Positions 13,867 to 37,603 of a stretch of 64,000 bases of DNA are shown here, piece by piece. The DNA lies in NCBI GenBank assembly GCA_021734945.1, contig JAIPIA010000001.1, positions 90,243-154,242 on the forward strand, written 5' to 3'. Origin of the DNA: Minisyncoccota bacterium (GTDB lineage Bacteria > Patescibacteriota > Minisyncoccia > Phycocordibacterales > CAIZLB01). Below the pieces are notes generated by a model. The model worked only from the letters and a program-made list of their open reading frames with translations. It was not told the DNA's origin and searched no databases. The translations under genes and the position numbers were made by a program. Numbering within the stretch: the stretch's first letter is position 1; the number at the start of each line of letters is the position of its first letter.

Positions 13867-14259
13867 TTAATTGACTTTCTTAAGAGTAGTAAGTTGTCTT
13901 AAACTAAATATGAATATGATGATAAAGAATAATAAACCTAAAGAACATGTTGATAGCTTGAAGTTTTCTGAGACAACAAAGAAACCTGAAAAAACTACTC
14001 CAACTATAGATATACTAGTTAGAGTCTTAGTATGTGCTTGTGCTTGGATTTTTCCAATTAACCCAAGAATTGAGACAATAAACAAGATTAAAAATAGAGC
14101 AAATCCATAGTAGCAAGCAGGATAACCTAGAAAGTAGGGACATGTTTCACCAAAAGAACAGGTCTTAAGGAAAAACTTTATAGAGCTGAGATACCCTGAA
14201 AAGAGAACTCCGCCAAGACTAATAATGAATAATATTTTATTGAAAAGTTTTTGTTCCAT
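13867..14259 (-). CDS. small VKOR-like (vitamin K epoxide reductase family) membrane protein, putative
   Basis: 130 aa, 4 hydrophobic helices, Cys pairs CSFGETC and CYYG in loop regions as in the VKOR CXXC active site. Confidence 0.45.
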   Translation of the reverse strand: MEQKLFNKILFIISLGGVLFSGYLSSIKFFLKTCSFGETCPYFLGYPACYYGFALFLILFIVSILGLIGKIQAQAHTKTLTSISIVGVVFSGFFVVSENFKLSTCSLGLLFFIIIFIFSLRQLTTLKKVN

Positions 14260-15121: not shown

Positions 15122-16336
15122 ATGGTACAAAAACGAAAGAGAAGAAGTAGAATTGATCCTAGAAAATTAACTGTTTTAATTCTTTCGGTTATTGTAATTA
15201 TGTTCATAAGTATATGGTGTTATGGCATAGTCAGCAGGACAATTGAAAACTTTCTAAAAAATAACCATGTAGGCGGTTTCACTGGTGTCTTTACGAAGCC
15301 TATATATCCTAAGAAGCCGGAACTTGATAAAGGAGAATATGATCTTCGGATGTCTTACTTGGCCCATAAGTTTAATTTTAACGATGCGACCTCAACAGCA
15401 CTTTTTAAAGAAGCTCTCAAGTTTTCAAATGCTTCAACTACTGTCGCGACATCAACTGTTGCTTCCACAACAAGTACAACTACAAAAGTTTTGACCAAAA
15501 AAATAGTATCAGATTTGTGGCCAGCAAAAGGGACAGCATATCCAAAAGTTGGAGCTATTTTGCCATTTAAGAGGGTGGTTGCGTATTATGGAAACCTTTA
15601 TTCAAAAAAAATGGGAATACTTGGCGAATACGAGTCTGACGAGGTTTTGCGGCGACTTCAAGCACAGGTAAAGGAATGGGAAATAGCAGACCCTGCAACA
15701 CCTGTTCAGCCAGCATTACATTATATTGCAGTCGTAGCACAGGGTGCGGCAGGGAAAGATGGAAAATATCGTACTCGGATGCCTGATGAACAAATTGATA
15801 GAGTTTTGGAGATGGCTAAAAAAATTAATGCAATAGTGTTTCTTGATATTCAAGTTGCGTTGTCTGATGTTCAACATGAGGTTCCTGCACTTGAAAAATA
15901 CCTTATACTGCCAAATGTACATCTAGGTATCGACCCAGAGTTTTCCATGAAAACTGGTAAAAAGCCAGGCAGTGTTATTGGCAGCATGGATGCAAGTGAC
16001 ATAAATTATACTGCATCATACCTAGCAGACTTGGTAAAAAAGAATGACCTTCCTCCAAAGATTTTGGTATTCTATCGCTTCACTCGAAACATGGTCACAA
16101 ATTACAAAAATATTAAAACATTGCCTGAAACGCAACTTGTATTAGCAATGGATGGTTGGGGACACCAAGCACGTAAAGTGGGTACATATAATGCTTTTGT
16201 AAATCCTGAGCCGATTCAATTTGCAGGGTTTAAGCTTTTTTACAAAAACGATCTAAAACAGGATAATTCTCGTTTGATGACACCGTCCGAGGTTCTAAAG
16301 CTCACACCGTCTCCAATATATATACAGTATCAGTAG
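15122..16336 (+). CDS. hypothetical membrane-anchored extracytoplasmic protein (possible TIM-barrel glycoside-hydrolase-like fold)
   Basis: 404 aa; N-terminal basic stretch and TM, Thr/Ser-rich linker; weak resemblance to DUF4015-type putative glycosyl hydrolase domains. Confidence 0.45.
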   Translation: MVQKRKRRSRIDPRKLTVLILSVIVIMFISIWCYGIVSRTIENFLKNNHVGGFTGVFTKPIYPKKPELDKGEYDLRMSYLAHKFNFNDATSTALFKEALKFSNASTTVATSTVASTTSTTTKVLTKKIVSDLWPAKGTAYPKVGAILPFKRVVAYYGNLYSKKMGILGEYESDEVLRRLQAQVKEWEIADPATPVQPALHYIAVVAQGAAGKDGKYRTRMPDEQIDRVLEMAKKINAIVFLDIQVALSDVQHEVPALEKYLILPNVHLGIDPEFSMKTGKKPGSVIGSMDASDINYTASYLADLVKKNDLPPKILVFYRFTRNMVTNYKNIKTLPETQLVLAMDGWGHQARKVGTYNAFVNPEPIQFAGFKLFYKNDLKQDNSRLMTPSEVLKLTPSPIYIQYQ

Positions 16337-16432: not shown

Positions 16433-16460
16433 TTGCATTTTCTAAAACTTGTGATATAAT
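16433..16460 (+). promoter_or_regulatory. sigma70-type promoter (TTGCAT, 16 nt spacer, extended -10 TGaTATAAT)
   Basis: good match to consensus about 70 nt upstream of 16529 gene. Confidence 0.5.
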
Positions 16461-16528
16461 ATATCTACTAAGTAAGTTTATTTAAAAACCCTTAACTCTC
16501 TCTAATTTAACTTTAACTCACTAAACAT

Positions 16529-17092
16529 ATGAAAAACATCGTAAAAATTACTTCAAAAATTCTTTCAATTACCCCAACTGCTCTTGCCACTATGTTTGCG
16601 ATAGCGCTTGTCTTTGGTCTAGTAGGTACAACTCAAGTAGAAGCTGCTGCTCAATCTACATACTTCGTTGATATTACTGGAAATGGCTGTGGAAATAATT
16701 GTTCTGACTTCTATAAATATTTAACTGCAAACGGTATTTCTGTTGGAACAAATAATACTAATACTTCAAACTATACTAATAACGGAGCGTCTACATCTAA
16801 TGCAGGATATTCTGTTCCAGTTGGTCAAAATGGTAAAGTTCCATCATCAAATTATACTCAATTCCCATATCAGATTTATACTCCATTTGCGAGTGCTAAT
16901 ACTAACTATCAGCCATATGTTCCAGTTCAATATCCAGAATACATATATATTCCTTATGGTAAGGATGCCACAGAACAGATGAATAAGTATAAAAAGACTT
17001 ACACGTCTACAGCTTCTGCAGGTGCATACTCACCAAACAGTTCAGCCTCAAATGGAAATTCTGGATTCACAATCACATCTATACTTAAATAG
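16529..17092 (+). CDS. secreted low-complexity Asn/Ser/Thr/Tyr-rich protein
   Basis: 187 aa; signal peptide ending VEAAAQ; C-terminal Tyr/Pro/Gln-rich motifs (YQIYTPF, YQPYVPVQYPEYIYIPYG). Confidence 0.6.
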   Translation: MKNIVKITSKILSITPTALATMFAIALVFGLVGTTQVEAAAQSTYFVDITGNGCGNNCSDFYKYLTANGISVGTNNTNTSNYTNNGASTSNAGYSVPVGQNGKVPSSNYTQFPYQIYTPFASANTNYQPYVPVQYPEYIYIPYGKDATEQMNKYKKTYTSTASAGAYSPNSSASNGNSGFTITSILK

Positions 17093-17169
17093 TACAAAGG
17101 TAAGGTTGGGCATAAAGCATTATATGGGTGTTTGCTGGGCTTAATAAAACATGATATAAAAGTGTTACT

Positions 17170-17619
17170 ATGAGAAAACTAAGTTTTCAGAAGGTAACAC
17201 TTTTTGTCGTTTACAGGACTGCTTTGATGTTTTGTTTTACTCTCTTTGTTATTGGGTTTATTTCTCTCACTCAACCTAAAGAGGTCTCTGCCTGTTCTTA
17301 TTATGATACATATGTGTGTGGTAGCTATGGGTATTCTAACTATGGTGCTCCATATTATGGATACGGAAATGGCTACTACGGATACGGTACTCCGTACTAT
17401 GGATCTTACAATTATTCTCCATCTCCCACATATCAATATATTCCTTACCAACAATCTAACCCGGGAAATTCAGGTTCATCTATATTCAATTACAAATACG
17501 TTCAGTACCCATATTATCAGTATGTGCCTTTTCAAAATGCCGCACCTTCAAACTCTCAATATGGTCTAAATACTAATTACGTACAGTATCCGTACCAAAC
17601 ATATATTCCTTATAGATAA
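17170..17619 (+). CDS. secreted Tyr/Gly-rich protein (paralogous C-terminal motif to upstream gene)
   Basis: 149 aa; signal/TM then YGYSNYGAPYYGYGNGYYGYGTPYYG and YVQYPYYQYVPF / YVQYPYQTYIPY motifs. Confidence 0.6.
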   Translation: MRKLSFQKVTLFVVYRTALMFCFTLFVIGFISLTQPKEVSACSYYDTYVCGSYGYSNYGAPYYGYGNGYYGYGTPYYGSYNYSPSPTYQYIPYQQSNPGNSGSSIFNYKYVQYPYYQYVPFQNAAPSNSQYGLNTNYVQYPYQTYIPYR

Positions 17620-17666
17620 ATTTATCAACACGGCTTTTAAAGGTCACATGCTATAATCAAAAGCAT

Positions 17667-19118
17667 ATGAATCCTACGAATTCACCTTGGCTACATCAAC
17701 TCGAACGAACAAGACCTGTCGATACTTTAAAAGATGATATTGCGGTAGATATTGCAATTGTTGGAGCAGGTATTGCTGGGGTAATGACATCTTATTTTAT
17801 ATTGAGAGATACTAAAAAGCAGGTTTTACTTATTGAGGGTGGAAGAGTTGCACATGGTGCAACAGGCCACAATGCGGGACAAATCGTATCTGACTTTGAA
17901 AGAGAATTTTATTCACTTGTTGAAGAGTATGGACTTTCTTTGGCGGCTGATGCAGAAAACTCAGTGAGAGGTGCATGGATTTTGCTTGAGCAAATATTTG
18001 CTGAAGCTAAACTGAGTACACCCATGTCTTCATTTATGGGGTATAACGGATTTACTCATGTTGATCGTATTGTTGATGAATTAAAGAATAATGCATTACG
18101 TCTGGAAGCTGGAATACAAATTTCTCCTATTTATATATCTGATACTGCTCCAGGGTTAGATGAAATTCCAAAGGATTATAAAAATCTATACAATTTGGTT
18201 CCTCATGCCGATATTCTTTCCTTGCTTGAAACACATGATGTACAATATATTGCTGTTATTTCAGAGAAGAAAGGTTGTGTTAACAGTGCAATGCTCGTTG
18301 AAGAAATTGTTGGATATCTACTGGCAACATACAAAGATCGCTTTATGCTTTGCGAGGAGACTCATATTCATGAGGTCACTTTGGAAAGAGATTTAGCATT
18401 ATTGAAAGCAAAGGAACATTCTGTCACTGCGGATAAGGTTATTCTCTGTACAAATGGATTTGAAAAATTTTCTATCAACAATAATGCTGGTGCAGATATA
18501 GATGTTAAATTCCACCATATGGTTAGAGGTAAGATAGGTTATATGGCCGGATTACTTGAGGAATTAAAACATCCTCCAGTTGCATTATCATTTTATGATC
18601 AAACTGCAGAAGATGTGGAGAGTGTAGTGGACCCGTATGATCAAAAGCCATATATCTATATGACACGACGCCCATATGAATTAGAGAAAAATGAGAAACA
18701 CAATCTAGTGTGTGTAGGAGGGCCTGACGTCTCGTTGGATGATACTGGTCAGTACATAAAAGAAGCAGAGTATAGCAAGGAAGCTATTGCGGAAATTGAA
18801 GGATTCCTTCATAAGACATATCAAAATTCACCTAAGGGAGATATTGATTTTCGATTTAAATGGCATGGTTTGATGGGTTATACTCCTACAAGTATTAGAG
18901 TAGTGGGTGAAGAGCCTAAAAATAGAGTCTTGATGTATAATCTAGGTTGTAATGGAGTTGGTATCTTGACCTCAATATATGGTGGCAAAAGAATCTCCGA
19001 GATTGTAGGAGGTACAAAACTGGCACCTTCACTATTTGATCCACGTGCAGTCTATAAAGGCTCAAAGACCTTAAGTCGGAAAAAAAGAATTCATCGGCTT
19101 GTTGCTCAAAAACTATAG
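17667..19118 (+). CDS. FAD-dependent oxidoreductase (DAO/glycine-oxidase-like)
   Basis: 483 aa; N-terminal dinucleotide-binding motif DIAIVGAGIAGV; DAO-family length and C-terminal pattern. Confidence 0.75.
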   Translation: MNPTNSPWLHQLERTRPVDTLKDDIAVDIAIVGAGIAGVMTSYFILRDTKKQVLLIEGGRVAHGATGHNAGQIVSDFEREFYSLVEEYGLSLAADAENSVRGAWILLEQIFAEAKLSTPMSSFMGYNGFTHVDRIVDELKNNALRLEAGIQISPIYISDTAPGLDEIPKDYKNLYNLVPHADILSLLETHDVQYIAVISEKKGCVNSAMLVEEIVGYLLATYKDRFMLCEETHIHEVTLERDLALLKAKEHSVTADKVILCTNGFEKFSINNNAGADIDVKFHHMVRGKIGYMAGLLEELKHPPVALSFYDQTAEDVESVVDPYDQKPYIYMTRRPYELEKNEKHNLVCVGGPDVSLDDTGQYIKEAEYSKEAIAEIEGFLHKTYQNSPKGDIDFRFKWHGLMGYTPTSIRVVGEEPKNRVLMYNLGCNGVGILTSIYGGKRISEIVGGTKLAPSLFDPRAVYKGSKTLSRKKRIHRLVAQKL

Positions 19119-19132
19119 TCTAGATTTTATAT

Positions 19133-19810
19133 ATGATTCATTTTGTTATACATTTTTTAAATACAAATATTTTACCGATTGTTAATCAAATTGGTGTGTG
19201 GTTTTATATCATAGTAGCTATAGTCGCTCTTCTAGAATCTACTATTATCATAGGTACTTTTGTGCCGGGTACTATTATCCTATTATTTTTTGGATTCACA
19301 GCTTCACAAGATAATGTGAGTGTATTTTGGGTGATTGTAGCGACGAGTATTGGTGCAGTGATAGGTGATTTCATAAGTTACTACATTGGTAGGTATGGAA
19401 GTGGTTTTATAAAAAGTGATAAAGGTATTTTGAGGATAAGTCATGTAAATATCGGTAAGGCTTTTTTTGCAAAGCATGGGAGCGTCAGTGTTTTATTGGG
19501 TAGATTTGTGAGTCCTATTAGACAAATTATTCCGTTCATCGCAGGGGCAGTCCATATGACATATCGAAGATTCCTATACTTAAATATTATAGGGGCGCTA
19601 CTCTGGGCGATTTCTTATATATTACTTGGCTATTATTTCGGAGCAAATTGGAGACTAATTGATAAGGTTATTATGCGCGTCGGTGTAGTGCTGACTGTTG
19701 TTATAGTAGGTGCGATAATTTATTTCTTTAATAAAAGAAGAGAGAAAAAATTAAATGCGCTAGGTTCTGTTGACCTAAAGATAGATGGTATAGATACTGA
19801 TGAATTTTAA
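19133..19810 (+). CDS. DedA/SNARE-associated family membrane protein
   Basis: 225 aa; conserved DedA region FVPGTIILLFFGF ... GAVIGDFISYYIGRYG. Confidence 0.8.
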   Translation: MIHFVIHFLNTNILPIVNQIGVWFYIIVAIVALLESTIIIGTFVPGTIILLFFGFTASQDNVSVFWVIVATSIGAVIGDFISYYIGRYGSGFIKSDKGILRISHVNIGKAFFAKHGSVSVLLGRFVSPIRQIIPFIAGAVHMTYRRFLYLNIIGALLWAISYILLGYYFGANWRLIDKVIMRVGVVLTVVIVGAIIYFFNKRREKKLNALGSVDLKIDGIDTDEF

Positions 19811-19880: not shown

Positions 19881-20384
19881 TTGGTAATGAGACTCAAAGA
19901 TACATATAATACACAGCCGTGCCGGGGGTTTATTGCTCTGTTTTTTGTATTGTCTATGGCTTCGTTCCTTACAGTCCTTATATATAGCGTAAGTCATAAT
20001 TTTAGCTATACATTGAGTATGCTTGTAAATTTCAAGAAACTAGACAACTCTCGTTCATCTGCATTGTATTGCAAATATAAGTTACTCAATAATCTATTAA
20101 TAAATATTGAGTATATACCAGCTGTTAAAACTGATATCACGACACCTTATGGTTCAACGTGTAGGTATGACTCATATAAACATGTATCTTCACAGGAAGT
20201 TGAAGTAGTTATTGTAGGTAAAAATAAGCAGTATCAAAATATATCACCGCAGAACGAATCAAATAATGAACTTATCAACAATCCAATTTCACGAAGTATT
20301 ACGCTAAGGTATACGTACAATATTACGGGCGATTTCTATGATTATGTCAGGAAGGTTGAGGGGGCTCAGATTAGTATGGATTAA
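19881..20384 (+). CDS. hypothetical membrane-anchored protein (possible pilus-associated, lacks canonical prepilin motif)
   Basis: 167 aa; single N-terminal hydrophobic helix following RGFIALFF; sits immediately upstream of two pilin genes. Confidence 0.4.
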   Translation: MVMRLKDTYNTQPCRGFIALFFVLSMASFLTVLIYSVSHNFSYTLSMLVNFKKLDNSRSSALYCKYKLLNNLLINIEYIPAVKTDITTPYGSTCRYDSYKHVSSQEVEVVIVGKNKQYQNISPQNESNNELINNPISRSITLRYTYNITGDFYDYVRKVEGAQISMD

Positions 20385-20471: not shown

Positions 20472-21056
20472 ATGAAACAAAAAATAAATATGTTTAATGT
20501 TTTTAAAATTAAAAAGCATAATAAAAATTACAAATCTTATCAGGATAAAAATGATTATGGAAAAGACAGAAAATCTCGATTTTTAACTACAAAGTCTGTA
20601 GTTCGTTCTAGGGGTGGTTTTACACTTCTGGAAGTGTTGATGGTTATAGGTATTTTGGCAATATTAGCAGGAGTTGTCTTAGTTGCTATAAATCCAGCCA
20701 GACAATTTAAAATTGCACGAGATTCACAAAGAAACGCCAACGTAAGTACAATACTCAATGCTATAGGACAAAATTTGACTGACCACGGGGGTGTGTTTAC
20801 TTGTGAGGGAGTCATTACAGATTTACCGACAACAAAAACAAATATTTCGTCTGAGGAAGGTGACTTCAATGTCGCAAACTGCTTAGTCCCTGATTATATT
20901 TCTGTTTTGCCATTTGACCCCTCAAAGGAAGGTTCTAACTATACTGATGAGTTTAGTTATAATACTGGGTACAGTATAGAATCAGATGTTGAAGGACGAA
21001 TCACTATATCAGCTGATGGTGAGGTCTCAGATAGGGTAATATCAGTTACTCGATAA
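20472..21056 (+). CDS. type IV pilin / pseudopilin (prepilin-type N-terminal methylation domain)
   Basis: 194 aa; G|FTLLEVLMVIGILAILAGVV class-III signal motif with Glu+5; unusually long (about 45-50 aa) basic leader unless start is mis-assigned. Confidence 0.75.
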   Translation: MKQKINMFNVFKIKKHNKNYKSYQDKNDYGKDRKSRFLTTKSVVRSRGGFTLLEVLMVIGILAILAGVVLVAINPARQFKIARDSQRNANVSTILNAIGQNLTDHGGVFTCEGVITDLPTTKTNISSEEGDFNVANCLVPDYISVLPFDPSKEGSNYTDEFSYNTGYSIESDVEGRITISADGEVSDRVISVTR

Positions 21057-21135: not shown

Positions 21136-21711
21136 GTGGTACTCAATTTCAATCGAAATAAAATAAAGGTCTTCAGACAAGTTAGTAAATTCAAAAAAGG
21201 CTTCACTATACTTGAACTATTAATCGTAATTGGAATTATTGGATATTTATCATCTATTGTGTTGACGAATACTCAGTCAGCACGAGATAAAGCTTACACT
21301 GCAAGAGGTCAAAAGGAATTAAATACGATATACCAAGCATTGCAAATGTATATGTCAGATAGAGGTGGGCGCATACCACCTGATGTAAGTCGTGGTTTAC
21401 CACCAGGGCTTGAGAACTATTTACCTACTGGTAAATGGCCTGATGCACCTTGGCCTGGTTCTGTGTATGACTGGGACGTTTGGGATGATCCACAGAGTTC
21501 AACTGATATCGTCCAAGTTAGTGTAAGGTTCTGCCCAGCAGGTGGAGACATTGCAACTTGTAACTTCCCAAAGGAGAGTTGGGCATCAGGTTTCGGTGTT
21601 GATAGTTCTTACTACTATTGTATACAAGGTACCTGTAGATCACATATAAACCAACCTGTAACATACCCTGGTAAGTGCGCAAACTGCTCAGGGACATCAA
21701 CCTCACCGTAG
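21136..21711 (+). CDS. type IV pilin-like protein with Cys-rich C-terminal domain
   Basis: 191 aa; KKG|FTILELLIVIGIIGYL prepilin motif; C-terminal region has 8 Cys. Confidence 0.75.
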   Translation: MVLNFNRNKIKVFRQVSKFKKGFTILELLIVIGIIGYLSSIVLTNTQSARDKAYTARGQKELNTIYQALQMYMSDRGGRIPPDVSRGLPPGLENYLPTGKWPDAPWPGSVYDWDVWDDPQSSTDIVQVSVRFCPAGGDIATCNFPKESWASGFGVDSSYYYCIQGTCRSHINQPVTYPGKCANCSGTSTSP

Positions 21712-22031: not shown

Positions 22032-23684
22032 ATGAAGAAGGCCTCAGAAAAAAATAAAAGAGCAGTATTCTCTATAGGTAGCAAAGACATCAACATCTCC
22101 AACGTCGGGGATGTTGCTTTGCGTTTGCAAGAGATAGCTATTTCGAAGGAGTCACGTTCGAGACTAGTCAAAAACTTTGAGTATCTTAAAGAGAGATCTA
22201 CTAAAGAAGTCATATACGGATTAAATACTGGTTTTGGCCCGATGGCCCATATCTTTATTTCAAAAGAAAAACAGACTGAGCTCCAGTACAATCTCATTCG
22301 AAGTCACGCTGTCGGACTGGGGGATTTTATAGAACCAAGGTATGTTCGAGCAATTATGTTTATTCGATTGCAGACATTGCTAAAGTCACATTCCGCTGTG
22401 CACGGAGACACTTGTCGTTTATTGGTAGAGTTTTTAAACAGAAACATTGTTCCTATAACATACCAGCACGGATCAGTTGGGGCGAGTGGGGACTTAGTCC
22501 AACTAGCTCACATTGCAGAAGCACTCATCGGTGAAGGTAGAGTGATGTATCAGGGTAAAATTATAGAAACACAAAGATTGTTTAAAACCGTCCTAGCTAA
22601 GGATGGAATTGTCCCTTTAAAGATGCATCTTCGTGAGGGTCTGGCATTGATAAACGGCACGTCTTCGATGACAGGTATTGCTGCTTTGAATGTTCATTAT
22701 TCAAAAATACTCTTACAAAATTCTGCAAGAGCGAGTTCGTTATTATTTGAAATAGTAAATGCTTCAGAGGATTACTTTTCTAAGGAAATATCCGATGTGC
22801 GTCCTCATTATGGACAAATGAAAGTCGGGGAATTTTTCAGATCTATTCTTAAATCATCTAAAAGAATATTGCGTGAGGGTGCTAATGCCGCCAATGCTTT
22901 TGCAAAACACCCAGTGGACAGTTTGAATAAAATAAATAAAGATATTGAATCTACTAATTATGATACTCATCATATGGATCGAAGTCGGCAGGAGATTTAC
23001 TCTATTCGGTGTGCTATCCAGGTATTAGGACCTATACTAGATGAAATTAAGAATGCAACACAGGTGGTGGAGATTGAAATGAATTCTGTCACAGATAATC
23101 CTCTTGTCTTTATTGATTCAAAGATTGTTCATGGGGGAAATTTCCATGGCGATTATATATCGTATGAGATGGATAAACTTAAAATTGCTATAACAAAGTT
23201 ATCAATTTTTTCTGAACGAAAGTTAAACTTTTTAGTAAATGATAAAGTTAATAAAATTCTTCCACCATTTTTAAATACGGGTGTAGTTGGTTTAGACTTG
23301 GGTCTTCAGGGTTTGCAATTTGTTGCCACTTCTACTGTAGCAGAAAATCAATCATTATCTATGCCTGTCAGTATTCATTCTATTTCTTGTAATAACGACA
23401 ATCAGGATATTGTGAGTATGGGTACAAACTCCGCATTGATGGCTCAGAAGGTGATAGAAAATACTTTTGATGTATTAGCAATTGAACTTATGTCTATAGT
23501 ACGAGCTGTTCAGATACTTGGCATTGAATCAGATTTAAGTGTAGGTACAAAAGCTTTTTATGAGAGTATTAAGAGATATATTTCAGGCAAAGCGGATTTG
23601 GTAAAGAGAGATGAAGTACAAGCTATTGTCGATTTTCTTAAAAATCAAGAGGTTTCCGATTTTTATAATACAACGCGAAAGTAG
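22032..23684 (+). CDS. hutH: aromatic amino acid ammonia-lyase family, histidine ammonia-lyase-like (MIO cofactor)
   Basis: 550 aa; signature GSVGASGDLVQLAHIA (Ala-Ser-Gly MIO triad); selectivity region RSHAVG with Ser-His as in HAL rather than PAL/TAL. Confidence 0.8.
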   Translation: MKKASEKNKRAVFSIGSKDINISNVGDVALRLQEIAISKESRSRLVKNFEYLKERSTKEVIYGLNTGFGPMAHIFISKEKQTELQYNLIRSHAVGLGDFIEPRYVRAIMFIRLQTLLKSHSAVHGDTCRLLVEFLNRNIVPITYQHGSVGASGDLVQLAHIAEALIGEGRVMYQGKIIETQRLFKTVLAKDGIVPLKMHLREGLALINGTSSMTGIAALNVHYSKILLQNSARASSLLFEIVNASEDYFSKEISDVRPHYGQMKVGEFFRSILKSSKRILREGANAANAFAKHPVDSLNKINKDIESTNYDTHHMDRSRQEIYSIRCAIQVLGPILDEIKNATQVVEIEMNSVTDNPLVFIDSKIVHGGNFHGDYISYEMDKLKIAITKLSIFSERKLNFLVNDKVNKILPPFLNTGVVGLDLGLQGLQFVATSTVAENQSLSMPVSIHSISCNNDNQDIVSMGTNSALMAQKVIENTFDVLAIELMSIVRAVQILGIESDLSVGTKAFYESIKRYISGKADLVKRDEVQAIVDFLKNQEVSDFYNTTRK

Positions 23685-25299
23685 ATATCAATAAGATAGT
23701 TATAAATATATCCTGTCCATTACGTTCAAAGGGAGTTGTGTCTGATTTGTGAGGTACTTCAACAGTTCCGTGTAAAACTCCTTCTTTCCCAAAAGCTAAT
23801 TCTGCTTGTATGTTTCCATTATTGTCTACTATAGCTGATGGGCCAAGGCGGTTTGCGCGTATGATAGGAGTGTTGTTTTCGATTGCTCTATAAACTGTAT
23901 TTCCAAGGTTAAACTCACCCGCTCCACCGCTTGAAAAGAGCGCTTCCGAACCTATAGCAAAAATAAGATCCTTATCAGCAGCATTTGTAGTCTGAATAGG
24001 GTGTGTAACTTCTGAGCAAACAAGAGTTCCAATACTTCGATCGTATAGGAGGGTTTCCAAAGTTGAGCTTCCAGGAGAAGAGTCGATAGGTGTAGTATAC
24101 ATACCAAGTTTTTGAGAAAACATAGGAGTGTAATCTAAGAAAGGAAAAAGTAGTTTTTTTTGAGAATAACCTATAAGTACGCCATTTTTCCAAAAGTGTA
24201 TTTCGTTATAAAAGAGAGTATCTCTATATGTGGTGTTCCATGTAACAAAAATATTATCCTTTTTGATGTACAGTTTTGTCCAATTGCTAAATGTCTCGAA
24301 GTCAGTAGCGATTACTTTCTTGTTAAAGAGATTCTTGTTTTTCTTTTCGGTAATTGCTCCATTCCAAGGCGCAAATGGGTAAATGATTATTTGAGGTTTT
24401 ATCTGATCTTTCTGTGCTTCTAGTACTAATTTTTGAAGCCTAGGGAATGAAAAATAAGTTTCTCCAGTCTGTGTGTCCGTTTTCTCTTCACCAAAAGGGG
24501 ACTCAGTCTTGTCTTGATCTTGAATGAGAGATACATCAATACTAGACTTTTCATTTGTACTTTTTTCCTTTTCAATTTTTATAATCGTCAACTCATGAAG
24601 AACTAAAGCTCCAGCGATACAAAAAAATAGTACCGCTATAGATCTCTTTATATTTTTTTCATCTAGTTTGTGTACCTCCGTGGAACATGACCTGTTACTT
24701 CTCTTTATTAAATAATAAAGTATAGAGCCAATACTCATATTGATAAGTGCAATAGCAAAAATAGTCATGTACACACCACCATACTGTGCGAGTGATGCAA
24801 AAGTTGTATTATGTGCTGGATATCCAATAATGCTGTATTCGATACTAAACATCATTTTGTGTGTACACCACTCGCTAAAAGTCCAACACCCTGCTGCGTA
24901 GAATATATGTGCTACTGCGTTTTGAGATTTGAGCAATCTCAAAAGTAGAATTTGAAATGATGCAAAAATTCCGATGAAAATAAGTATAAAGAGGCTTGAT
25001 ATTCTGATCAATTCTGTAAATAAATAAGTCTCCTCTACCCAATGGAATTGCAGAACGGTTAATGACAAAATAAATGCTGTGAAAATAATACCAAAGAGAA
25101 AACCACCGAGAGCAGTCCTTTTCCATGGGTATGTATCCGAAATTCGTGTAAATAGATATATTGGAACGAGGCATATAAAACAAAGCCACCAAATCTTAAT
25201 CGGCGGAAGTGTTGCAATGACCAGGATCGCAGACACTACAGGTAAAATAAACCATTTTTGTCCATAAGATTTAATTTTGTCATATTCAAGTTTGTTCAT
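23638..25299 (-). CDS. lnt: apolipoprotein N-acyltransferase-like (Lnt family: polytopic N-terminal domain plus carbon-nitrogen hydrolase domain)
   Basis: 553 aa; 6-7 N-terminal TM helices, low-complexity linker, C-terminal CN-hydrolase region with candidate catalytic Cys (GTLVCSEV); 3' end overlaps hutH-like gene by 47 nt (convergent). Confidence 0.7.
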   Translation of the reverse strand: MNKLEYDKIKSYGQKWFILPVVSAILVIATLPPIKIWWLCFICLVPIYLFTRISDTYPWKRTALGGFLFGIIFTAFILSLTVLQFHWVEETYLFTELIRISSLFILIFIGIFASFQILLLRLLKSQNAVAHIFYAAGCWTFSEWCTHKMMFSIEYSIIGYPAHNTTFASLAQYGGVYMTIFAIALINMSIGSILYYLIKRSNRSCSTEVHKLDEKNIKRSIAVLFFCIAGALVLHELTIIKIEKEKSTNEKSSIDVSLIQDQDKTESPFGEEKTDTQTGETYFSFPRLQKLVLEAQKDQIKPQIIIYPFAPWNGAITEKKNKNLFNKKVIATDFETFSNWTKLYIKKDNIFVTWNTTYRDTLFYNEIHFWKNGVLIGYSQKKLLFPFLDYTPMFSQKLGMYTTPIDSSPGSSTLETLLYDRSIGTLVCSEVTHPIQTTNAADKDLIFAIGSEALFSSGGAGEFNLGNTVYRAIENNTPIIRANRLGPSAIVDNNGNIQAELAFGKEGVLHGTVEVPHKSDTTPFERNGQDIFITILLISTFALYYKNRKPLDF

Positions 25300-29590: not shown

Positions 29591-29662
29591 TCCGTGGTAG
29601 CTCAGCGGTAGAGCAATCGACTGTTAATCGATTGGTCGTAGGTTCGATCCCTACCCACGGAG
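29591..29662 (+). tRNA. tRNA-Asn (anticodon GTT)
   Basis: manual fold: acceptor TCCGTGG/CCACGGA, D-stem GCTC/GAGC, anticodon stem ATCGA/TCGAT with loop CTGTTAA, T-stem GTAGG/CCTAC with loop TTCGATC, discriminator G; CCA not encoded. Confidence 0.85.
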
Positions 29663-31327
29663 CAAGTTAGGACAGACCGACGCAAAAACGTCGGTTTTTC
29701 CTTTGTCTACATCATAATTTCTAGGTTCGAACTGTGGGTTTTTGAGTTTTGCTTCTTTGAGGCCTTGAATGAGTATATCCATCCATTTTGTGTTGATAAT
29801 ACTCACTTTTTCTTCATCCCATATTAGGTTCGAACCAAAACGTGAAAGAACCTCTCTTTTGGAGTTTATATTGTCAGATTGCATAATATCCACAAACTCT
29901 TTTGTGAGGTCAGCAATGTTGATTGCTGTGTCAAACCAGCTAGCATCAACTTTCCTTCTCGAACTTGATAAGATAGTTTTGTTTAATTCCTCAAGTGACA
30001 CTTTTCCATCAGCTGGAGATAGTGCTCCATCGGCCATCATTTCGATAATCTTCTTTTTTCGTTTTTCAGCTGTCTCAACTTCGTCTTTTGCATGAGTTGT
30101 CATTGCTTGCTGTAGCTCTATATCTTTATCCTTTAATTCGTGTAGATACTTTTTACTCCACTCGACAAGACTTGGGGATAGTTGTACGTTTTCTTTTGCA
30201 TAATCAACTATGTGTCCCGTTAGTTTATTCTCACTGATGTATTTAGTCTTTAGGTAGCTTTTTCTTCTTGCAACATTGTAGTAATAAACGTATTCAAGAT
30301 ATGTAGGCTTATCTATCTCCATGATCAATTTTCCACAATCAGGACAATTTGTCTTATTTGAATATGCAAACTTTTTCTTACAATCACAAATAACCTGGAA
30401 CTTAATGTCTGGTCCTATAAAATCACCGTTAGGGGCCTTAATAAAACCGGCAAAAGTGGTTACATGTGTCTTTGTCTTTGGGAGGTTTCTGTCCGAAAGC
30501 ATTCTTAAGATCTTGTTGTGCTGTGCTTCTGTTATCACTCTCGGTAAGCTTGCGTTTAGCTCATAACGCTGCCCATTCTGATAAAAGAAACCAGCGTATA
30601 TAGGGTCTTTTAGCATCGTATGAACTCTTGAGATGGCCATAAGAGCTCCACCAATTCTTTTATGTTTTGGAGTGGTTAGTTTTAATTCTTCACGTACGTA
30701 TCGTGCCAATCTATTTGCAGACCAATTACCAGTAAGGAACATGTGAAAAATCCTTTCAACTAGCGGGTATTTGTCTTTATCGACTAGCCACTTTCTATTT
30801 CCTTTCTCTTCGGTCTTATCATTGATAAAACCGATAGCAGCGACTCCATGAGGGTAACCCTTTAATGCTTTAGTCTTTTGTCCATTTTTTACAAAGGCAC
30901 TTTTATCGTCACTATCTCTTTTTGAAAAAAGGAACTCGAGTCCTAAAGTCATTTTGTCGATAGATGTATTGTAGTAAGTTCTTGTAGGTGTTTTAACACA
31001 AAGCAGTTTACCTCTATCCATTGCATCTATAACTCTTGCTCCATCAATCGCATTACGTGCGAGACGGTTCGGATGTATAGCTAAAATTGCATTGATCTCG
31101 CCTTTGTTTATTTTTGAAATAAGGCCGTCGAAAATCTGTCGACCCACCTTAAAAGCACTTTTCTCTTCCTTCAAGTAAAGACAAACATTCAGGTCCATTC
31201 TCACTGAGAAATCAGCAAGCTCACGTTCTTGAGTCTCGATTGACTGCACCTGCTTATCTTCGGTATCACTTGATTTTCTACAATATGATCCAAAGCGAAG
31301 TTCTTTTTCATTGATATTGTTGTTCAT
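29651..31327 (-). CDS. large serine recombinase (resolvase/invertase catalytic domain, recombinase domain and zinc-ribbon)
   Basis: 558 aa; N-terminal YCRKSSDTEDKQVQSIETQ (catalytic Ser region), recombinase zinc beta-ribbon CDCKKK...CPDCGK; last 12 nt of CDS overlap tRNA-Asn 3' end. Confidence 0.85.
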   Translation of the reverse strand: MNNNINEKELRFGSYCRKSSDTEDKQVQSIETQERELADFSVRMDLNVCLYLKEEKSAFKVGRQIFDGLISKINKGEINAILAIHPNRLARNAIDGARVIDAMDRGKLLCVKTPTRTYYNTSIDKMTLGLEFLFSKRDSDDKSAFVKNGQKTKALKGYPHGVAAIGFINDKTEEKGNRKWLVDKDKYPLVERIFHMFLTGNWSANRLARYVREELKLTTPKHKRIGGALMAISRVHTMLKDPIYAGFFYQNGQRYELNASLPRVITEAQHNKILRMLSDRNLPKTKTHVTTFAGFIKAPNGDFIGPDIKFQVICDCKKKFAYSNKTNCPDCGKLIMEIDKPTYLEYVYYYNVARRKSYLKTKYISENKLTGHIVDYAKENVQLSPSLVEWSKKYLHELKDKDIELQQAMTTHAKDEVETAEKRKKKIIEMMADGALSPADGKVSLEELNKTILSSSRRKVDASWFDTAINIADLTKEFVDIMQSDNINSKREVLSRFGSNLIWDEEKVSIINTKWMDILIQGLKEAKLKNPQFEPRNYDVDKGKTDVFASVCPNLLRG

Positions 31328-32026
31328 TTTTTTGTTAATTTTAGCACGCGCCGGGATCTTTTACCTCTGATCGATAGTAAAAGTTATCCTTATATGACAA
31401 CACATCCGGGGCTTCATCACGATGTTTTCTCAAGACCCTTGATGAAGATCAGATTGATACGACTCACATCAGACGGCTGGGCAAGAGATCCCGGAGAGAA
31501 CTTGTTTTCCCAGCTTTCGCATGTGCACCTTATCAACCCTTATTTGTTTTGTAGAGCGAAGTTGTTTAACCAGATGCTCTAAATCAGCTGGTGTGGATGT
31601 GTATTTGTTCTACGCTTATGAGCTTCGGCAAGCAAGGTCAATAAGAACAAGCCAATCTGTTGTAGATCGTTTTGATCCAAGAGGTTTGACTTATCTTCGC
31701 CGATTTCTAGGCGGAGAGCCTCTTTTAAATCTTCGATTGCTTTAGTGCTCAAAGTTTTCATACTTTTGAGCCGGTTTCGTCCCAAGAACCGGCCATTCAC
31801 GGGCTAGGTTGAATGACTGGTTTTTAAGACCAAACACGTCTAGCCCATAGTATGAGTCTACGAAATAGCACTCAAAACTCCGAGATCAATATCCAAAATT
31901 ATCTTTATTTAACAACGTATTTTTTATGTGTATTGACACCACTTGCATAAAACAAGAAATACTATCTCTTTCTCTACCAATAAAAATAAGCTAGAATGTA
32001 ATTACAACTAAATAAGCCGACCTAAC

Positions 32027-32165
32027 CCATCGAGAGAAATCTCGGTGGTATGGTCAAAAGTCCAGTAACGATCAAAGAACCCATTATGTGGGGTTGTCGT
32101 TACTGGCCATGCAGGGAAACTTGCATGGAGGCCGCAAGGTCTCACTCACGTAGTGGGCTTTTTGG
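32027..32165. ncRNA. candidate structured RNA element (four consecutive hairpins, two GNRA tetraloops), function unknown
   Basis: CCATCGAGA-GAAA-TCTCGGTGG; CCAGTAACGA...(nested AACCC/GGGTT)...TCGTTACTGG 10-bp perfect stem; CCATGCA-gggaaact-TGCATGG; GAGGCC-GCAA-GGTCTC. Lies within the 720-bp non-coding region and directly upstream of a membrane-protein gene. Confidence 0.3.
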
Positions 32166-32172
32166 TTGCCAA

Positions 32173-32511
32173 ATTATGAAAAAGATAATAGGCATTTTGA
32201 AGAAAGATAAAATAGGGAGACTAGATTACATAATTGCTCTAGGCACATTTCTTGTGCTGGAAGTAGTCATTTTCAGCTTCATCTTCTTGCTTGTCGATCA
32301 CATCAGTAACGACACATGGTTATTTATTTTCGGTACTTTGCTTATTACATCTCTAGGTACTCTTGCTTGGATAAATTCAAAGAGGATGCGAGACGCTGGA
32401 AGGAATACTAAGGAGCTTTTTTACTACTTTGTCATCCCTTTATTCTTTGCTGCCCATAGTATTTTCCTTATCTTTTTAACCAGCAAAGATGCACATCTAC
32501 GACAAAAATAA
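32173..32511 (+). CDS. small 3-TM membrane protein (island-encoded)
   Basis: ORF track gives 32050..32511, but the N-terminal 41 aa overlap the structured non-coding element; ATG at 32173 (MKKIIGIL...) followed by hydrophobic helices is the likely start. Confidence 0.45.
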   Translation: MMKKIIGILKKDKIGRLDYIIALGTFLVLEVVIFSFIFLLVDHISNDTWLFIFGTLLITSLGTLAWINSKRMRDAGRNTKELFYYFVIPLFFAAHSIFLIFLTSKDAHLRQK

Positions 32512-32592
32512 AAATCTAAAGGCAATTTTGGACTTCAAAGACGATAAACCTATTTTGACCTTTAACCCTAAATCGTGGGTCAATAAATTAAG

Positions 32593-32823
32593 GTGGAAGT
32601 TGAGGGTAATACTAAAAAAACTACTGCCATGATTACAGCAGTATATGTTCTAGCTATCACAGTCCTTTGCTTTCAGATCTTGGTAGTACTTTTCGTTATC
32701 TTATCCCTATACAACCTTATTAAGGTTTACGTAAAGACCAAAGAGAAAGAATACCTAGCTGTAATTATATTGGTACTCGGAATTATAGGACTTTGTCTTA
32801 TTTTCCCAGATTTGAGGCCTTAA
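32593..32823 (+). CDS. small 2-TM membrane protein
   Basis: 76 aa, two hydrophobic helices; overlaps 3' end of convergent HTH gene by 26 nt. Confidence 0.35.
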   Translation: MEVEGNTKKTTAMITAVYVLAITVLCFQILVVLFVILSLYNLIKVYVKTKEKEYLAVIILVLGIIGLCLIFPDLRP

Positions 32824-33217
32824 CCCAGCCATTACTTTTTGCCATTTTATCAATACGTTCCTGGAGTTCATCATCGCTTAAACCCTCAAAGCCTGTCCGC
32901 ATAGGTTCTGGAGTCTCAACACGTACTCGGTTAGTGTATTCGCTCGGGTAGCGTCTCTCAAGCCACCAGGCGGCCGCTTGCCAGGTCTTTTTACTAGCTT
33001 CTTTAATTATCTTTATATGCTCCATCTTGTACTCGATCTCTTTTTGCCTCATCTGTTCTGAGAAATCTGAGTCTCGTTTCCAAAAAGAAAGAGTGTCTTC
33101 GCTAATACCAGCAAGAGCAGAAGCGTCCCGCTGGCTAGCGCCATGACTGATAGCGTCTAGGATGATCTTAATGGTTTTTGGGGTAGCTTTTGTTTTACCT
33201 TTAAGTATTTGCGTCAT
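32798..33217 (-). CDS. phage-type helix-turn-helix protein (terminase-small-subunit-like / phBC6A51-type HTH)
   Basis: 139 aa; HGASQRDASALAGISEDTLSFWKR HTH and AAAWWLERRYPSEY motif typical of this phage HTH family. Confidence 0.55.
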   Translation of the reverse strand: MTQILKGKTKATPKTIKIILDAISHGASQRDASALAGISEDTLSFWKRDSDFSEQMRQKEIEYKMEHIKIIKEASKKTWQAAAWWLERRYPSEYTNRVRVETPEPMRTGFEGLSDDELQERIDKMAKSNGWVKASNLGK

Positions 33218-33254
33218 GAAAGAATGATAACAAAACTACCCTATATTATCCGAG

Positions 33255-36200
33255 CTATTTTATATTGAGACTTTCCCACGCAGAGATGATTTGTTGCATT
33301 CTGGCTCCTGCAAGTGGCATTGATGCAAAACGAATTCTGATCACGCTGCGAATAAGTTCAATTGCTGTTCGTGCATCTCTTTCAAAGGTCAAAGCATCAA
33401 GAACGGTCATAATCAGACCTTCACGCTCCTTATCGGTAACCGGCTGCTGCCATAGTAAAAACATGAAGTCAGCTAACACACCAACGACTGATCTAAGCTC
33501 CATTTTTACACCTTTAAGCGTGGCCAAGACTTCTTTGAATGGACTTTGGTTTTCCCATTGTGCTTGCCTTGCTGCCTCAATCAGAGTAGTGCTTTCAAGA
33601 GTAACGTGCTGATATCTGCGAAGAACCAGCTTGATGACTGCATCCCAGTATTCTGAACTCGAGATCTTCTTGTCGATAAGAAAGTGCATCAAAATTGCTT
33701 GCGTCCAAACGCCGTTCACTTTGAAGTCATCGTTCTTTGCATACATTCTAGTGGCCAAGTCTTCAGCGTACAACGAGCACTCGTTTTCTTTTGCGATAAG
33801 TATTGTTTCAATTGCATACTTTCCGAGCACTTTTTCCATCTCTTCAAACTGTTGAGTCTTCGGCAATGTTTTGCATGGTGTTAGAGTACAGTTTTCACGT
33901 ATCCATTTTTTCAGAGACTCAAGTGCTTCCACTTCGGTCGCAGCTTGTTCAGGAGTTTTTTCGTCTCGAATAAAGCTACCATCCATTTTTCCTAAAGTAG
34001 TAGATCCTTTTGAGCCCATCCCTTTTCTTTCTGAAATTGCCTCGTTCAGAGTATCTATGGTTGATTGTGTTACAAGAACTTTCTTGAATTTATCTTTGAA
34101 CATTTCAAGCAAGCCAAGTTGAGATAGAGTGAGTAGGGATGTAATGTCTATGGCTATAGTGTCGTTTGTTTTGATTGAGTCGAGGGCGACTTGACGCTCT
34201 TCAAGGGTGCCAACGCAAGACCTTATACCTACGCTTGCTGAAAGGCCATACCATACATCAACAATGTTCTTGTTAATTACACTTGCGAAAGCACCTACCG
34301 TGAGTTTCATGTCAATATAAAGTTTCTCTGCTTGAGAGACATATTCACTGTGATTTGAGACAACCTGCAAAACTTTATCGAGACTCTCTTTTGTCTTTTC
34401 CTCAGAGCTTACATCTACTGAAAAGCGTTCAAGAGACTTTTGTTCGGAAAATCGTTCCGGCATCAGTCGCATAGACTCATGAAGTGCATGCACGTATTTG
34501 TTTTTGATCTCAGTGATTTTAACCACAATTTTACTGATGGCCCCTTCAGACACAACAACATCATCATTAACCGATCTGCCCAAAAGCTTTTCACCAATTC
34601 CAGAAGAAACACCTATTTCATTCAAAGCCATGCTGAGATCTTTTCGGTCTTCAAGTAGGTAGCATGTGATCTGATCAGCGTCGTTTTTCGTGTATACAGC
34701 ACTAGATATGACTGCAGTTTTTGGGATCTCAAGTAGTTTCTCAAGTTTATGGTCTTGCGCCAAAAAGATAGTCATATACTTGGCATGTGCTTCGCCGTCA
34801 TCGAAGTACTTCCGTCTCAACTGATAGGCGGCTTCGAGTGATTTTTCTACCTTATTCCTTTCAGCGTATAGCTGGGCCAACTGGAACCCCGGGTTTATAG
34901 GGAGTTGGGTTATATCAATATCTTCATCGAGAAACTTATCAAGCTTTTCAAACTCATCAAGTCGAAACCAGTGTGTAGCTAGCCGAGTTTTTATTTCCAG
35001 GTCGTCTGGATGAGATAATAAGTATTTTTCTGCAGCAGCAGAAGCAGCAGACAGATCTCCGATGTTCTCGAGAATAGATAGCTCAATCTGCAACAGAAAC
35101 AAACCCTTGTTTTCGTCTGGTAGACGCTTAAACAAGCTTAGTGCTTTATCAACCTCGTTGGCTCTGTAGTACGAATAGAAAAGATTATCTAGGTGAGGTG
35201 ACGGAACTCTGGGGTCAATTATCTTTTCATACAAAGGCCATGACTGCGCGTATTTTTGCATGTTATACAAGTCGTCTGCCAAATTGATGACAATGTGAGC
35301 AGGGGTCATGTCAGTAATATATCCGTAGGCCTCATCAAGTAGATTGCCCGCCGCTTCCTTGTTACCAGCAAACCTTTCGGTACGGCTTGCGGCAATTAAA
35401 TTCTCGATATTCGTTGGATCAAACGATCTAAGTTTATCGACGATTTTTTTTGCTTTCTCATAATTTTTCTCCTTGATATAAACATGAACAAGCATGCGTT
35501 CTTCCTCGGATCGTAATTCAGGCGGGAGGTCGTCGCTGAACGATTTGATCAGTGTCTCCCGTGCCTCTACTAGGTTATTTTCATCAAAATAGATACCAGC
35601 AAGAACATATGCGGCTTCTGGAACCTCTTTTTTACCTACCACAGTCTTGAGTATCTCAATGGCCTGCTTTCTCTCTCCCTTTGAGTAGAGCATGAACGCC
35701 TGCTGTTTCAACATTGCCGCATCTTCAGGCTGGTAGCGCACCGCGCTGGCCATATCAGCATTAGCCTTATCCATTTCACCTAGTAGCTTATAAGCTGTTG
35801 CTCGATTGGCGTACCAAGAGGGACGATAGCTTATACTTTCAGAATTAGAAAGACTGTCTATGGCTTCCGAAAGTAATTGAACAGCTTTTTCTATTTTTTC
35901 CTTGTCTTCTGGGATAAGTTGCATATTGTTTGCGACTTCATGCTTCTGCATAAAAGTCTCAAGGATCGTGGATGCAAGATTTGCTTGAATGTCAGGGTTC
36001 TTCTTTCTGATTTTTATAGAGTCTTCCATTGCAATCTCAAGCCACTTTATAGATGATGCGAGATCACCGCGTTCACGTGCTGCATGCGCAATGGTAAACG
36101 CCACATCTTCTGACTTTCGAAACTCTGCTGGTATATCCTTCAGTATATCTTCAAGCGCTTGAGTCTTTGGGGAGCAGTTTATCAGAATGCCGATTGCTCG

Positions 36201-37532: not shown

Positions 37533-37603
37533 ATTGCTTGTCAGATAAAACTGTGTCCTGGTTGCATATCTATCTCAATTTAACTTTTTGAGTTAAAGTA
37601 AGG

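Follow-up and report, generated by a model that had tools for sequence, protein, structure and literature searches.

Adjacent tyrosine-module paralogues with predicted signal peptides at a type IV pilin locus of a Minisyncoccota bacterium

Results

The ORF1 and ORF2 genes and their products

The window analysed here, a stretch of 64,000 nucleotides (64 kb) from one contig of a Minisyncoccota bacterium, carries two adjacent forward-strand open reading frames (ORFs), termed ORF1 (A-type) and ORF2 (B-type), whose predicted products join a signal peptide to a set of tyrosine-rich modules and whose downstream neighbours include type IV pilin genes. The earlier note on this DNA had described them as tandem secreted tyrosine-rich proteins, and the two genes and, by sequence reading, their signal peptides are borne out, each signal peptide having a basic n-region, a hydrophobic core and a conserved Ala at position -1. 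ORF1 corresponds to the NCBI entry K9M11_00515 ('Candidatus Pacebacteria'), and its features are as follows (aa, amino acids; ↓, predicted cleavage):

16529-17092, + strand: ORF1 (A-type, 187 aa), with 22 homologues at E values down to 1e-71 (alignment A1)
16529-16645, + strand: signal peptide, residues 1-39, predicted cleavage V-E-A↓A by sequence reading
16679-16702, + strand: invariant GNGCGNNC loop, residues 51-58, with a presumed C54-C58 disulfide; columns G51-N57 and C58 are invariant
16850-16888, + strand: Tyr module 1, NYTQFPYQIYTPF, residues 108-120, which aligns with the family form SYVQYPYQVYTPF
16904-16960, + strand: residual module NYQPYVPVQYPEYIYIPYG, residues 126-144, with a copy of DNA repeat D1 at 16925-16957
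17060-17089, + strand: extreme C-terminus SGFTITSILK, in which G179, F180, T181, T183 and S184 are invariant

The ORF1 product is laid out as a signal peptide, a presumed disulfide loop, an N/S/T-rich linker, the Tyr modules, a charged helix and a conserved C-terminal motif. Residues 1-10 are rich in Lys, the hydrophobic core spans residues 18-33 (mean Kyte-Doolittle hydropathy 2.6 in the best 12-residue window of the signal segment), and the -1 Ala, A39, is invariant in the 22 homologues of A1. Near the mature N-terminus the A-type consensus reads (Q)STYFVD(I/L)TGNGCGNNC(A/S)DFYxYL, within which GNGCGNN is invariant. After the N/S/T-rich linker the modules follow in the order YVQYPYQxYTxF, YVQYPYYxYxYFQNPAPKYDSY and QYPExxYIYYGKDATEQMNKYKKTY, before a second linker and the C-terminus. 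The window's own ORF1 (P0008) has an in-frame deletion of the central module, NYVQYPYYxYxYFQNPAPKYDSYLSG, visible as a gap against all 21 homologues. The A-type end, SGFTITSIxK, is invariant, and diverged members have GF[VT][MI]TSG[RFYN] instead; the family form of this C-terminal motif, GF[TVIS][IMLR][TV]S[GI]x, also ends the diverged A-types and diverged B-types.

The second gene encodes a shorter protein with a related plan:

17170-17619, + strand: ORF2 (B-type, 149 aa), with homologues in alignments A2 and A3
17170-17292, + strand: signal peptide, residues 1-41, predicted cleavage V-S-A↓C; M1, K8, V9, L11 and F12 are invariant in A2
17293-17409, + strand: Cys loop CSYYDTYVC (residues 42-50) and G/Y/S/N spacer, including YYGYGNGYYGYG
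17431-17463, + strand: degenerate module YQYIPYQQSNP, residues 88-98, with a copy of DNA repeat D1 at 17416-17448
17488-17547, + strand: core module NYKYVQYPYYQYVPFQNAAP, residues 107-126, which matches A-type NYVQYPYYAYQYFQNPAP
17575-17616, + strand: terminal module NYVQYPYQTYIPYR, residues 136-149, in which N136-Y142, Y145 and R149 are invariant

ORF2 thus consists of a signal peptide, a Cys loop, a Gly/Tyr-rich spacer and three Tyr modules, the last of which is the end of the protein. Its N-terminus combines basic residues (R2, K3, K8 and R16), a conserved KVTLF within the n-region, a hydrophobic segment at residues 17-33 and the polar stretch TQPKEVSA, which is followed by C42; A41 and C42 are nearly invariant in A3. 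The Y/G/N run that had been noticed in the second gene is confirmed as YYGYGNGYYGYG, at residues 62-73. It belongs to a G/Y/S/N spacer whose length in orthologues lies between about 30 and about 130 residues, and B-types accordingly span 133-252 aa with identical ends. The core module contains the invariant positions V111-Y116, Y118, F121-N123 and P126. As a whole, the B-type consensus runs from the KVTLF signal peptide through A↓C-S-x-Y-D-x-x-G-C, often with a second GCGxCG, and on through the spacer and modules to the end YVQYPYQxYVYN[RK].

Two statements of the earlier note about these proteins need qualification. Mature regions dominated by Tyr are a fair description of ORF2 (Y 29%, S 11%, G 11%, P 10%, N 9% and Q 8%, with 3 charged residues only), whose sequence holds 9 Y-x-Y triplets (up to 16 in homologues), but ORF1 is less extreme: its mature part (148 aa) has N 13%, S 12%, T 11.5%, Y 11.5% and G 9%, and consists mainly of N/S/T (together 36%). 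Likewise, a shared ending of the YVQYPY..YIPY kind applies to ORF2, which ends in NYVQYPYQTYIPYR, but not to ORF1, in which YVPVQYPEYIYIPYG lies at residues 130-144 and 43 residues still follow.

The C-terminus of ORF1, GFTITSILK (GFVMTSGR and GFTITR in relatives), resembles the C-terminal strand ...VISVTR of the pilin encoded at 20472-21056; this likeness may have a meaning such as strand complementation. ORF1 and ORF2 themselves were rejected as type IV pilins, as neither has the prepilin N-terminus G↓F-x-x-x-E with its hydrophobic helix (PF07963/TIGR02532) or an N_methyl match, whereas the products of 20472-21056 and 21136-21711 do match; the GFTITS of ORF1 sits at the C-terminus with no helix after it. 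A sortase substrate was also rejected, given that ORF1 ends 7 residues past the GF motif without a hydrophobic segment.

Conservation and extent of the family

A search for the motif family, as the earlier note had proposed, recovered homologues of both ORFs and thus disposed of its concern that they might have none. For ORF2, 7 homologues were found at first (A2) and 13 once synteny-derived sequences had been added (A3). Across all pairs compared, nonsynonymous change (pN 0.11-0.38) lies well below synonymous change (pS 0.54-0.89), indicating purifying selection, and the closest pair, L003 versus L005, gives a dN/dS of about 0.1. With pN far below pS and with the conservation described above, spurious ORFs were rejected, and judged by these substitution patterns ORF1 and ORF2 are real genes. 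They evolve faster than their neighbours, at 43-67% versus 63-83% identity.

The family is small. When 1.84 billion representative proteins were searched exhaustively with a hidden Markov model of the A-type, only 23 clusters were returned. The B-type profile gave 40 clusters at 90% identity, all of 126-277 aa and without a Pfam domain or a name. A scan of a genome collection gave only 2 loci and a metagenome scan only 3 short ones. Named sources are metagenome-assembled genomes of 'Candidatus Pacebacteria', 'Paceibacterota' and 'Patescibacteria group'; diverged members were placed taxonomically by the similarity of their neighbour genes. No match was obtained in sequence searches of Pfam, NCBIfam and PDB with the single proteins and with both family profiles; for Pfam, this holds at E <= 0.01 for ORF1 and ORF2 and at E <= 1 for 35 family members. 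A literature search found nothing that describes the Tyr-module family, and a phage origin was rejected because tblastn gave no phage match. By these searches the family is an undescribed, small orphan superfamily, which resembles known secreted repeat and structural proteins by analogy only.

Homology of the two proteins

Compared directly, ORF1 and ORF2 show only marginal similarity: the BLASTP match is not significant (E 0.59), and with composition-preserving shuffling the pair has z = 3.6, its score being reached by 4/1000 shuffles. Comparison of ORF2 with other members of the ORF1 family gave 0/1000 for P0009, P0012 and P0029 and 4/1000 for P0023. The pairwise score in the window is weak because its ORF1 has lost its best module. 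The family profiles, in contrast, align by hhalign with 98.8% probability and an E value of 1.1e-16 over 118 colinear columns, and this colinearity runs from the signal peptide via the Cys loop across all modules. In line with this, the B-type profile recovers A-type proteins at E values of 1e-12 to 1e-6 among 5.8 billion sequences.

Common to both families is the module nYVQYPY[YQ]xYxY[FY]QNPxP, present in 2-4 copies with variable N/S/T- or G/Y-rich spacers between them and occurring in near-identical form in A-type (NYVQYPYYAYQYFQNPAPKYDSY) and B-type (NYVQYPYYQYTYFQNPAP) proteins. In 80 proteins we counted 205 instances (at least one in 79/80), with fixed positions occupied by Y in 99%, P in 100% and Q in 69%, and four 33-nt DNA copies of the module, 67-76% identical, are still detectable in the window. 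The motif similarity therefore extends beyond low complexity, for which the earlier note had left room: it is marginal for the window pair itself and clear for the family profiles and the fixed-position module. Judged by these comparisons, the motif shared by ORF1 and ORF2 is true homology, and the two are paralogues. Diverged B-types retain an A-like tail and a GF terminus (YYNKPASQQLSQYYRP...GGF in L013 and ...SGFVRN in L014), which places the origin of the pair in an old tandem duplication, with later loss of the tail from the close-clade B-type.

Strict conservation of the module by position points less to generic low complexity suited to cross-linking than to a specific structure or an interface for binding. 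The cysteines of the mature part are even in number (2, 4, 6, 8 or 10) in about 70 of the 80 superfamily members, and odd or zero counts mostly trace to a cleavage site misplaced by the crude signal-peptide predictor.

AlphaFold2 with the family alignments gave a mean pLDDT (predicted local distance difference test score) of 40 for ORF1 and 50 for ORF2, and the only confident element is the N-terminal signal helix of ORF2, residues 2-33. As the input alignments were shallow (22 sequences for ORF1 and 7 for ORF2), these low values are weak evidence of disorder.

Promoters of the pair

Each gene is preceded by a promoter of its own with an extended -10 element:

16433-16460, + strand: ORF1 promoter, with -35 TTGCAT (16433-16438), a 16-nt spacer and extended -10 TGATATAAT (16452-16460)
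17132-17160, + strand: ORF2 promoter, with TTGCTG, a 17-nt spacer and extended -10 TGATATAAA (17152-17160)

A strong sigma70 promoter with an extended -10 had been proposed ahead of the pair. The extended -10 is indeed there, but the -35 TTGCAT is weak (3/6 of the consensus), the promoter is not listed by the consensus scanner, and ORF2 does not depend on it alone, having its own. At orthologous loci the ORF1 promoter takes the near-consensus form TTGACA-16-TGnTATAAT. The 5' untranslated region (UTR) of ORF1 measures about 68 nt, whereas the extended -10 of ORF2 ends 9 nt ahead of the ATG, a leaderless-like spacing that implies a leaderless or nearly leaderless mRNA. The ORF2 arrangement, TTGnnA, 17 nt, TGnTATAA[AG] and then nGTGT[CT]ACT-ATG, recurs in the window, L003, L005, L007, L009 and L010, and in L013 and L014 a terminator-like hairpin with a T-run was seen by eye between the A- and B-type genes. 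On these sequence features, ORF1 and ORF2 are adjacent yet separately transcribed, and the near-consensus or extended -10 promoters on both genes suggest strong expression. In the window as a whole, TGNTATAAT is about twofold enriched (10 matches versus 5.2 expected).

The start of the ORF1 5' UTR, CTACTAAGTAAGTnTATTAAA...CCTTTAAAAAC (16460-16500), is conserved in the window, L003 and L005, possibly as a regulatory leader, whereas the A-type genes of L009 and L014 are leaderless-like. The gene that follows ORF2 also has an extended -10 ending 9 nt before its ATG (17649-17666), which again implies a leaderless or near-leaderless transcript.

Gene neighbourhood

Downstream of the pair in the window lie:

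17667-19118, + strand: FAD-dependent oxidoreductase of the DAO family (PF01266, 4e-22), without a signal peptide
19133-19810, + strand: DedA/VTT-domain membrane protein (PF09335, 1.6e-19)
19887-20384, + strand: pilin-like protein with N-terminus RGFIALFFV..., no Glu5 and no family match
20472-21056, + strand: type IV pilin GFTLLEVLMVIGILAILAGVVLVAINP... (N_methyl, PF07963)
21136-21711, + strand: second pilin, with a TIGR02532/GspG-like N-terminus

Loci of the close clade share the order acyltransferase, CSD, (VKOR), exported cyclophilin, a 400-440-aa exported protein, (SNase, a staphylococcal-type nuclease), A-type, B-type, DAO, DedA/VTT, pilin-like, pilin(s) and, further on, a tyrosine ammonia-lyase-like (TAL-like) lyase. 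Because these neighbours are 63-83% identical, their synteny is uninformative about function. More telling are the diverged loci, whose gene orders are:

L013: A, B, DAO, DedA, where the contig ends
L014: A, B, DedA, pilin-like, pilin, without DAO
L016: A, B, DAO, DedA, pilin-like, pilin, with none missing
L017: A, B, DedA, pilin-like, pilin, without DAO
L018: A, B, DAO, pilin-like, pilin, without DedA
L012: A, DAO, without a B-type

An A-type gene is directly followed by a B-type gene in 10/11 distinct contexts, and a pilin-like gene together with a conserved pilin lies within 1-3 genes downstream in every locus with enough sequence, while the outer flanks differ. DAO is a neighbour in most loci and absent from L014 and L017, and DedA is present in every locus with enough sequence save L018. 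Relative to the window, the diverged loci are 67-74% identical in the type IV pilin and 63-67% in DAO, only 39-51% in DedA (L013, L014, L016 and L017) and 23-39% in the pilin-like protein. That diverged lineages retain the A-B pair beside type IV pilin genes is in keeping with a function at the cell surface or in attachment, which we infer from gene order.

A functional link to the upstream cyclophilin, the 404-aa exported protein or SNase was rejected; these genes are syntenic in the close clade only and are absent upstream in L016, L017 and L018.

Discussion

The reading that we favour, with confidence somewhat short of an even chance, is that ORF1 and ORF2, as two self-associating paralogues, form a surface or adhesive material outside the cell that is tied to the pilus locus. 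Export of both proteins is deduced from their signal-peptide features, from the conservation of the -1 Ala and of A41-C42, and from the AlphaFold helix of ORF2; both would be exported by Sec and then cleaved by signal peptidase I at an A-x-A-type site. Near the new N-terminus each protein would form a short disulfide loop (CGNNC in ORF1 and C-x7-C in ORF2), as the even cysteine counts suggest; a gene with a weak, sub-threshold VKOR-like match is also close by. The modules would then act as specific aromatic 'stickers' or beta-strands, through which ORF1 and ORF2 could associate homo- and heterotypically outside the cell into a non-globular surface or adhesive material. The A-type protein, with its extra charged helix and invariant ...GFTITSIxK end, might serve as the anchoring or nucleating subunit, and the B-type protein, almost uncharged, with 29% Tyr and an expandable G/Y spacer, as the bulk subunit. 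Assembly would be non-covalent, following a logic like that of CsgB/CsgA, TapA/TasA or long and short chaplins, and the material would act at the cell surface together with the next-door pilus, for example in attachment.

Several points weigh against this proposal. Self-assembly, amyloid formation and surface location are, for these proteins, conjectural. The failure of AlphaFold may reflect only the shallow alignments (22 and 7 sequences), and the lineages are fairly close (pilin 67-74%, DAO 63-67%), so that part of the synteny may be inherited gene order. L012 has an A-type without a B-type, and the two are therefore not an obligatory pair; the loci examined show no conserved genes dedicated to assembly or secretion alongside them; and a ligand-binding motif would fit the strict positional conservation equally well.

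The logic of the favoured reading is taken from what is established for two-paralogue functional amyloids. Curli CsgB/CsgA, FapB/FapC, TapA/TasA and chaplins likewise consist of adjacent paralogues that encode small exported proteins with a few copies of a positionally conserved polar or aromatic repeat, and there, too, one paralogue (here ORF1) is extended C-terminally by a part with a possible anchoring or nucleating role. The adjacency of paralogous subunits is found here in 10/11 contexts, an agreement by analogy only. Unlike in curli, however, there is no sequence relationship and no Curlin_rpt (PF07012) match, the gene tables of the 11 contexts hold no csgE/csgF/csgG-like or other assembly genes, and the repeat is based on Tyr/Pro rather than on Gln/Asn/Gly/Ser; the organism is presumably monoderm, and an amyloid state is conjectural here. 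The ORF2 spacer (SYGYSNYGAPYYGYGNGYYGYG), like its longer counterparts in L003 and L005, is almost uncharged and offers a second, more limited parallel, in composition, to the prion-like [G/S]Y[G/S] domains of the FUS type and the high-glycine-tyrosine proteins of eukaryotes. Those are intracellular or eukaryotic structural proteins, whereas ORF2 is predicted to be exported and its low complexity is confined to a variable spacer between conserved modules.

The main rival, though an unlikely one, is that the two proteins are ligand-binding adhesins, whose Tyr/Pro/Gln modules would bind a polymer by aromatic stacking without polymerising themselves. They might bind peptidoglycan or wall glycans of the cell that makes them, or a polysaccharide on the host surface, and, as soluble or attached lectin-like factors, decorate the wall or cooperate with the pilus. 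The strictness of the module by position, which includes the non-aromatic V, Q, P and N, is typical of binding motifs, and the pair adjoins pilin genes. In Saccharibacteria, type IV pili and lectin-like minor pilins matter for host attachment, which proceeds through these pilus-associated pilins and host wall glycans (PMC11623550). Like them, ORF1 and ORF2 would be surface factors of the candidate phyla radiation (CPR), encoded beside pilin genes and with a candidate role in attachment; they differ in having ordinary signal peptides, without the prepilin G↓FxxxE N-terminus, N_methyl or a predicted globular lectin domain. Moreover, no carbohydrate- or wall-binding family was found in Pfam, NCBIfam or PDB and there is no confident fold.

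The earlier note had suggested that cross-linking through dityrosine would yield a surface or adhesion material of importance for an epibiotic lifestyle. A covalent matrix, in which oxidation would join Tyr residues at Y-x-Y as dityrosine or isodityrosine and so form an insoluble layer on the surface, is improbable in our view. It would account for the very high Tyr content and the many Y-x-Y triplets, and DAO, a flavoenzyme of the H2O2-generating type, is often the next gene. But neither the scanned window ORFs of at least 150 aa nor the gene tables of related loci include a peroxidase, laccase or tyrosinase; the search covered 64 kb of the genome, and an oxidase elsewhere is possible. DAO has no signal peptide and is missing from the diverged loci L014 and L017, and would thus be cytoplasmic and dispensable. 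The proteins share with the Bacillus spore-coat proteins CotC/CotU/CotG, extensins, resilin and mussel foot proteins a high Tyr content with Gly/Asn/Ser/Pro, the Y-x-Y triplets, a location outside the cell (predicted for ORF1 and ORF2) and hardly any predicted fold. They differ from these in lacking homology, a Ser-Hyp or Lys-rich context and a nearby oxidase, and in a motif that is conserved position by position rather than in composition alone. Of the earlier suggestion, then, the cross-linking chemistry is unsupported; a surface or adhesive role fits two exported, Tyr-rich proteins (export being predicted) of a CPR organism with pilin neighbours, and that function is itself an interpretation.

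There is similarly little to be said for a membrane-tethered B-type, that is, a lipoprotein acylated on the Cys after the signal peptide, with its Tyr-rich chain on the outer face of the membrane. The +1 Cys is nearly invariant in B-types, V-S-A-C in the window fits the lipobox [LVI][ASTVI][GAS]C, and an Lnt-like gene lies at 23638-25299. Most homologues, however, have E, D, K, Q or H at -2 (A-E-A-C, V-E-A-C, A-D-A-C and A-K-A-C), and all have a polar c-region of 6-8 residues with Pro before the Cys, which is a signal peptidase I pattern. In addition, a conserved Cys follows the +1 Cys by 7-8 residues, as a disulfide partner would, and the +1 Cys is lacking in the subgroup P0060, P0062-P0064. 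A lipoprotein is thus possible for the window's V-S-A-C and, by its sequence, a poor fit to the family.

Very improbable, finally, is a secreted bioactive peptide or protein, bacteriocin-like or an effector against hosts or competitors, an idea that stems from the G-N-G...C-x3-C loop, loosely a pediocin box, and from Gly/Tyr-rich antimicrobial peptides: the proteins are small, predicted to be secreted, presumably disulfide-looped and faster evolving than their neighbours, but there is no Bacteriocin_II or other bacteriocin family up to E 1, the mature proteins (108-230 aa) greatly exceed class II bacteriocins in length, the genes next to the pair include no conserved immunity or transporter gene, and the chromosomal position is stable, without a phage match. 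Some class IIa peptides are Sec-exported, and the mature ORF1 N-terminus resembles these pediocin-like bacteriocins in having G-N-G and then two close cysteines. The ORF1 motif is GNGCGNNC, though, not YGNGVxCxxxxC, there is no PF01721 match and no immunity gene, and mature ORF1 (148 aa) is 3-5 times longer than mature class IIa peptides (about 37-48 aa). A precursor of a ribosomally synthesised and post-translationally modified peptide was rejected in view of the Sec signal peptides, the lack of a conserved modifying enzyme and the dispensability of DAO.

Returning to the favoured surface material, one may sketch a more specific version, which we regard as distinctly doubtful: the pair could be the two subunits of an unrecognised extracellular polymer or 'glue' in CPR bacteria of the Paceibacteria type, in which a tyrosine-zipper repeat (YVQYPY...YFQNP) would hold the material together and the A-type C-terminus would nucleate or anchor it; functionally coupled to a type IV pilus, it would attach the episymbiont to its host. 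What is known of how CPR/Patescibacteria attach to hosts comes largely from a few cultivated Saccharibacteria. A conserved pair at a pilin locus, predicted to be exported and belonging to no described family, therefore offers a small, easily synthesised surface or adhesive candidate for environmental Paceibacteria, and its positionally conserved Tyr module is an unusual sequence motif. Should the two prove to be no more than secreted proteins that evolve fast, without a known role, they would be one more CPR orphan family.

Other features of the window and of related loci

A VKOR-like match lies at 13867-14259 (E 9.6e-5, 23 bits, which is below the 27.5-bit Pfam cutoff). The 404-aa exported protein (15122-16336, + strand) has a transmembrane anchor, an S/T linker and a domain of about 270 aa; it is 71-75% identical across the close clade and gave no sequence match in Pfam, NCBIfam or PDB. 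The gene for an exported SNase is found between the 404-aa gene and the A-type gene in L003 (5085-5828), L007 (5099-5815) and L010 (6857-7486), and is absent in the window.

Downstream of the pilins, an aromatic ammonia-lyase (22032-23684, + strand) best matches the flexirubin-type tyrosine ammonia-lyase FlxA, with 608 bits (cutoff 700), and histidine ammonia-lyase with only 419 bits, an enzyme not expected in a CPR organism with a reduced genome. Synteny of its gene extends to L003 and L009 and not to the diverged loci; a link between this gene and the pair is unsupported beyond the close clade.

Further on, the region 29591-40000 is a probable integrated element, with a tRNA-Asn (29591-29663), a large serine recombinase (29651-31327, minus strand), a rise in GC content from about 0.35 to 0.42, a LOOT RNA (32019-32143, 89 bits) and a 1425-aa TPR-GreAB-C-PIN protein (33255-37532, minus strand). 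In L008, L014 and L016, too, serine recombinases are encoded shortly downstream of the pilins. The right half of the window encodes a zeta-toxin family kinase and a MerR/TipAS-type regulator (44701-45378 and 43603-44376, respectively, both + strand).

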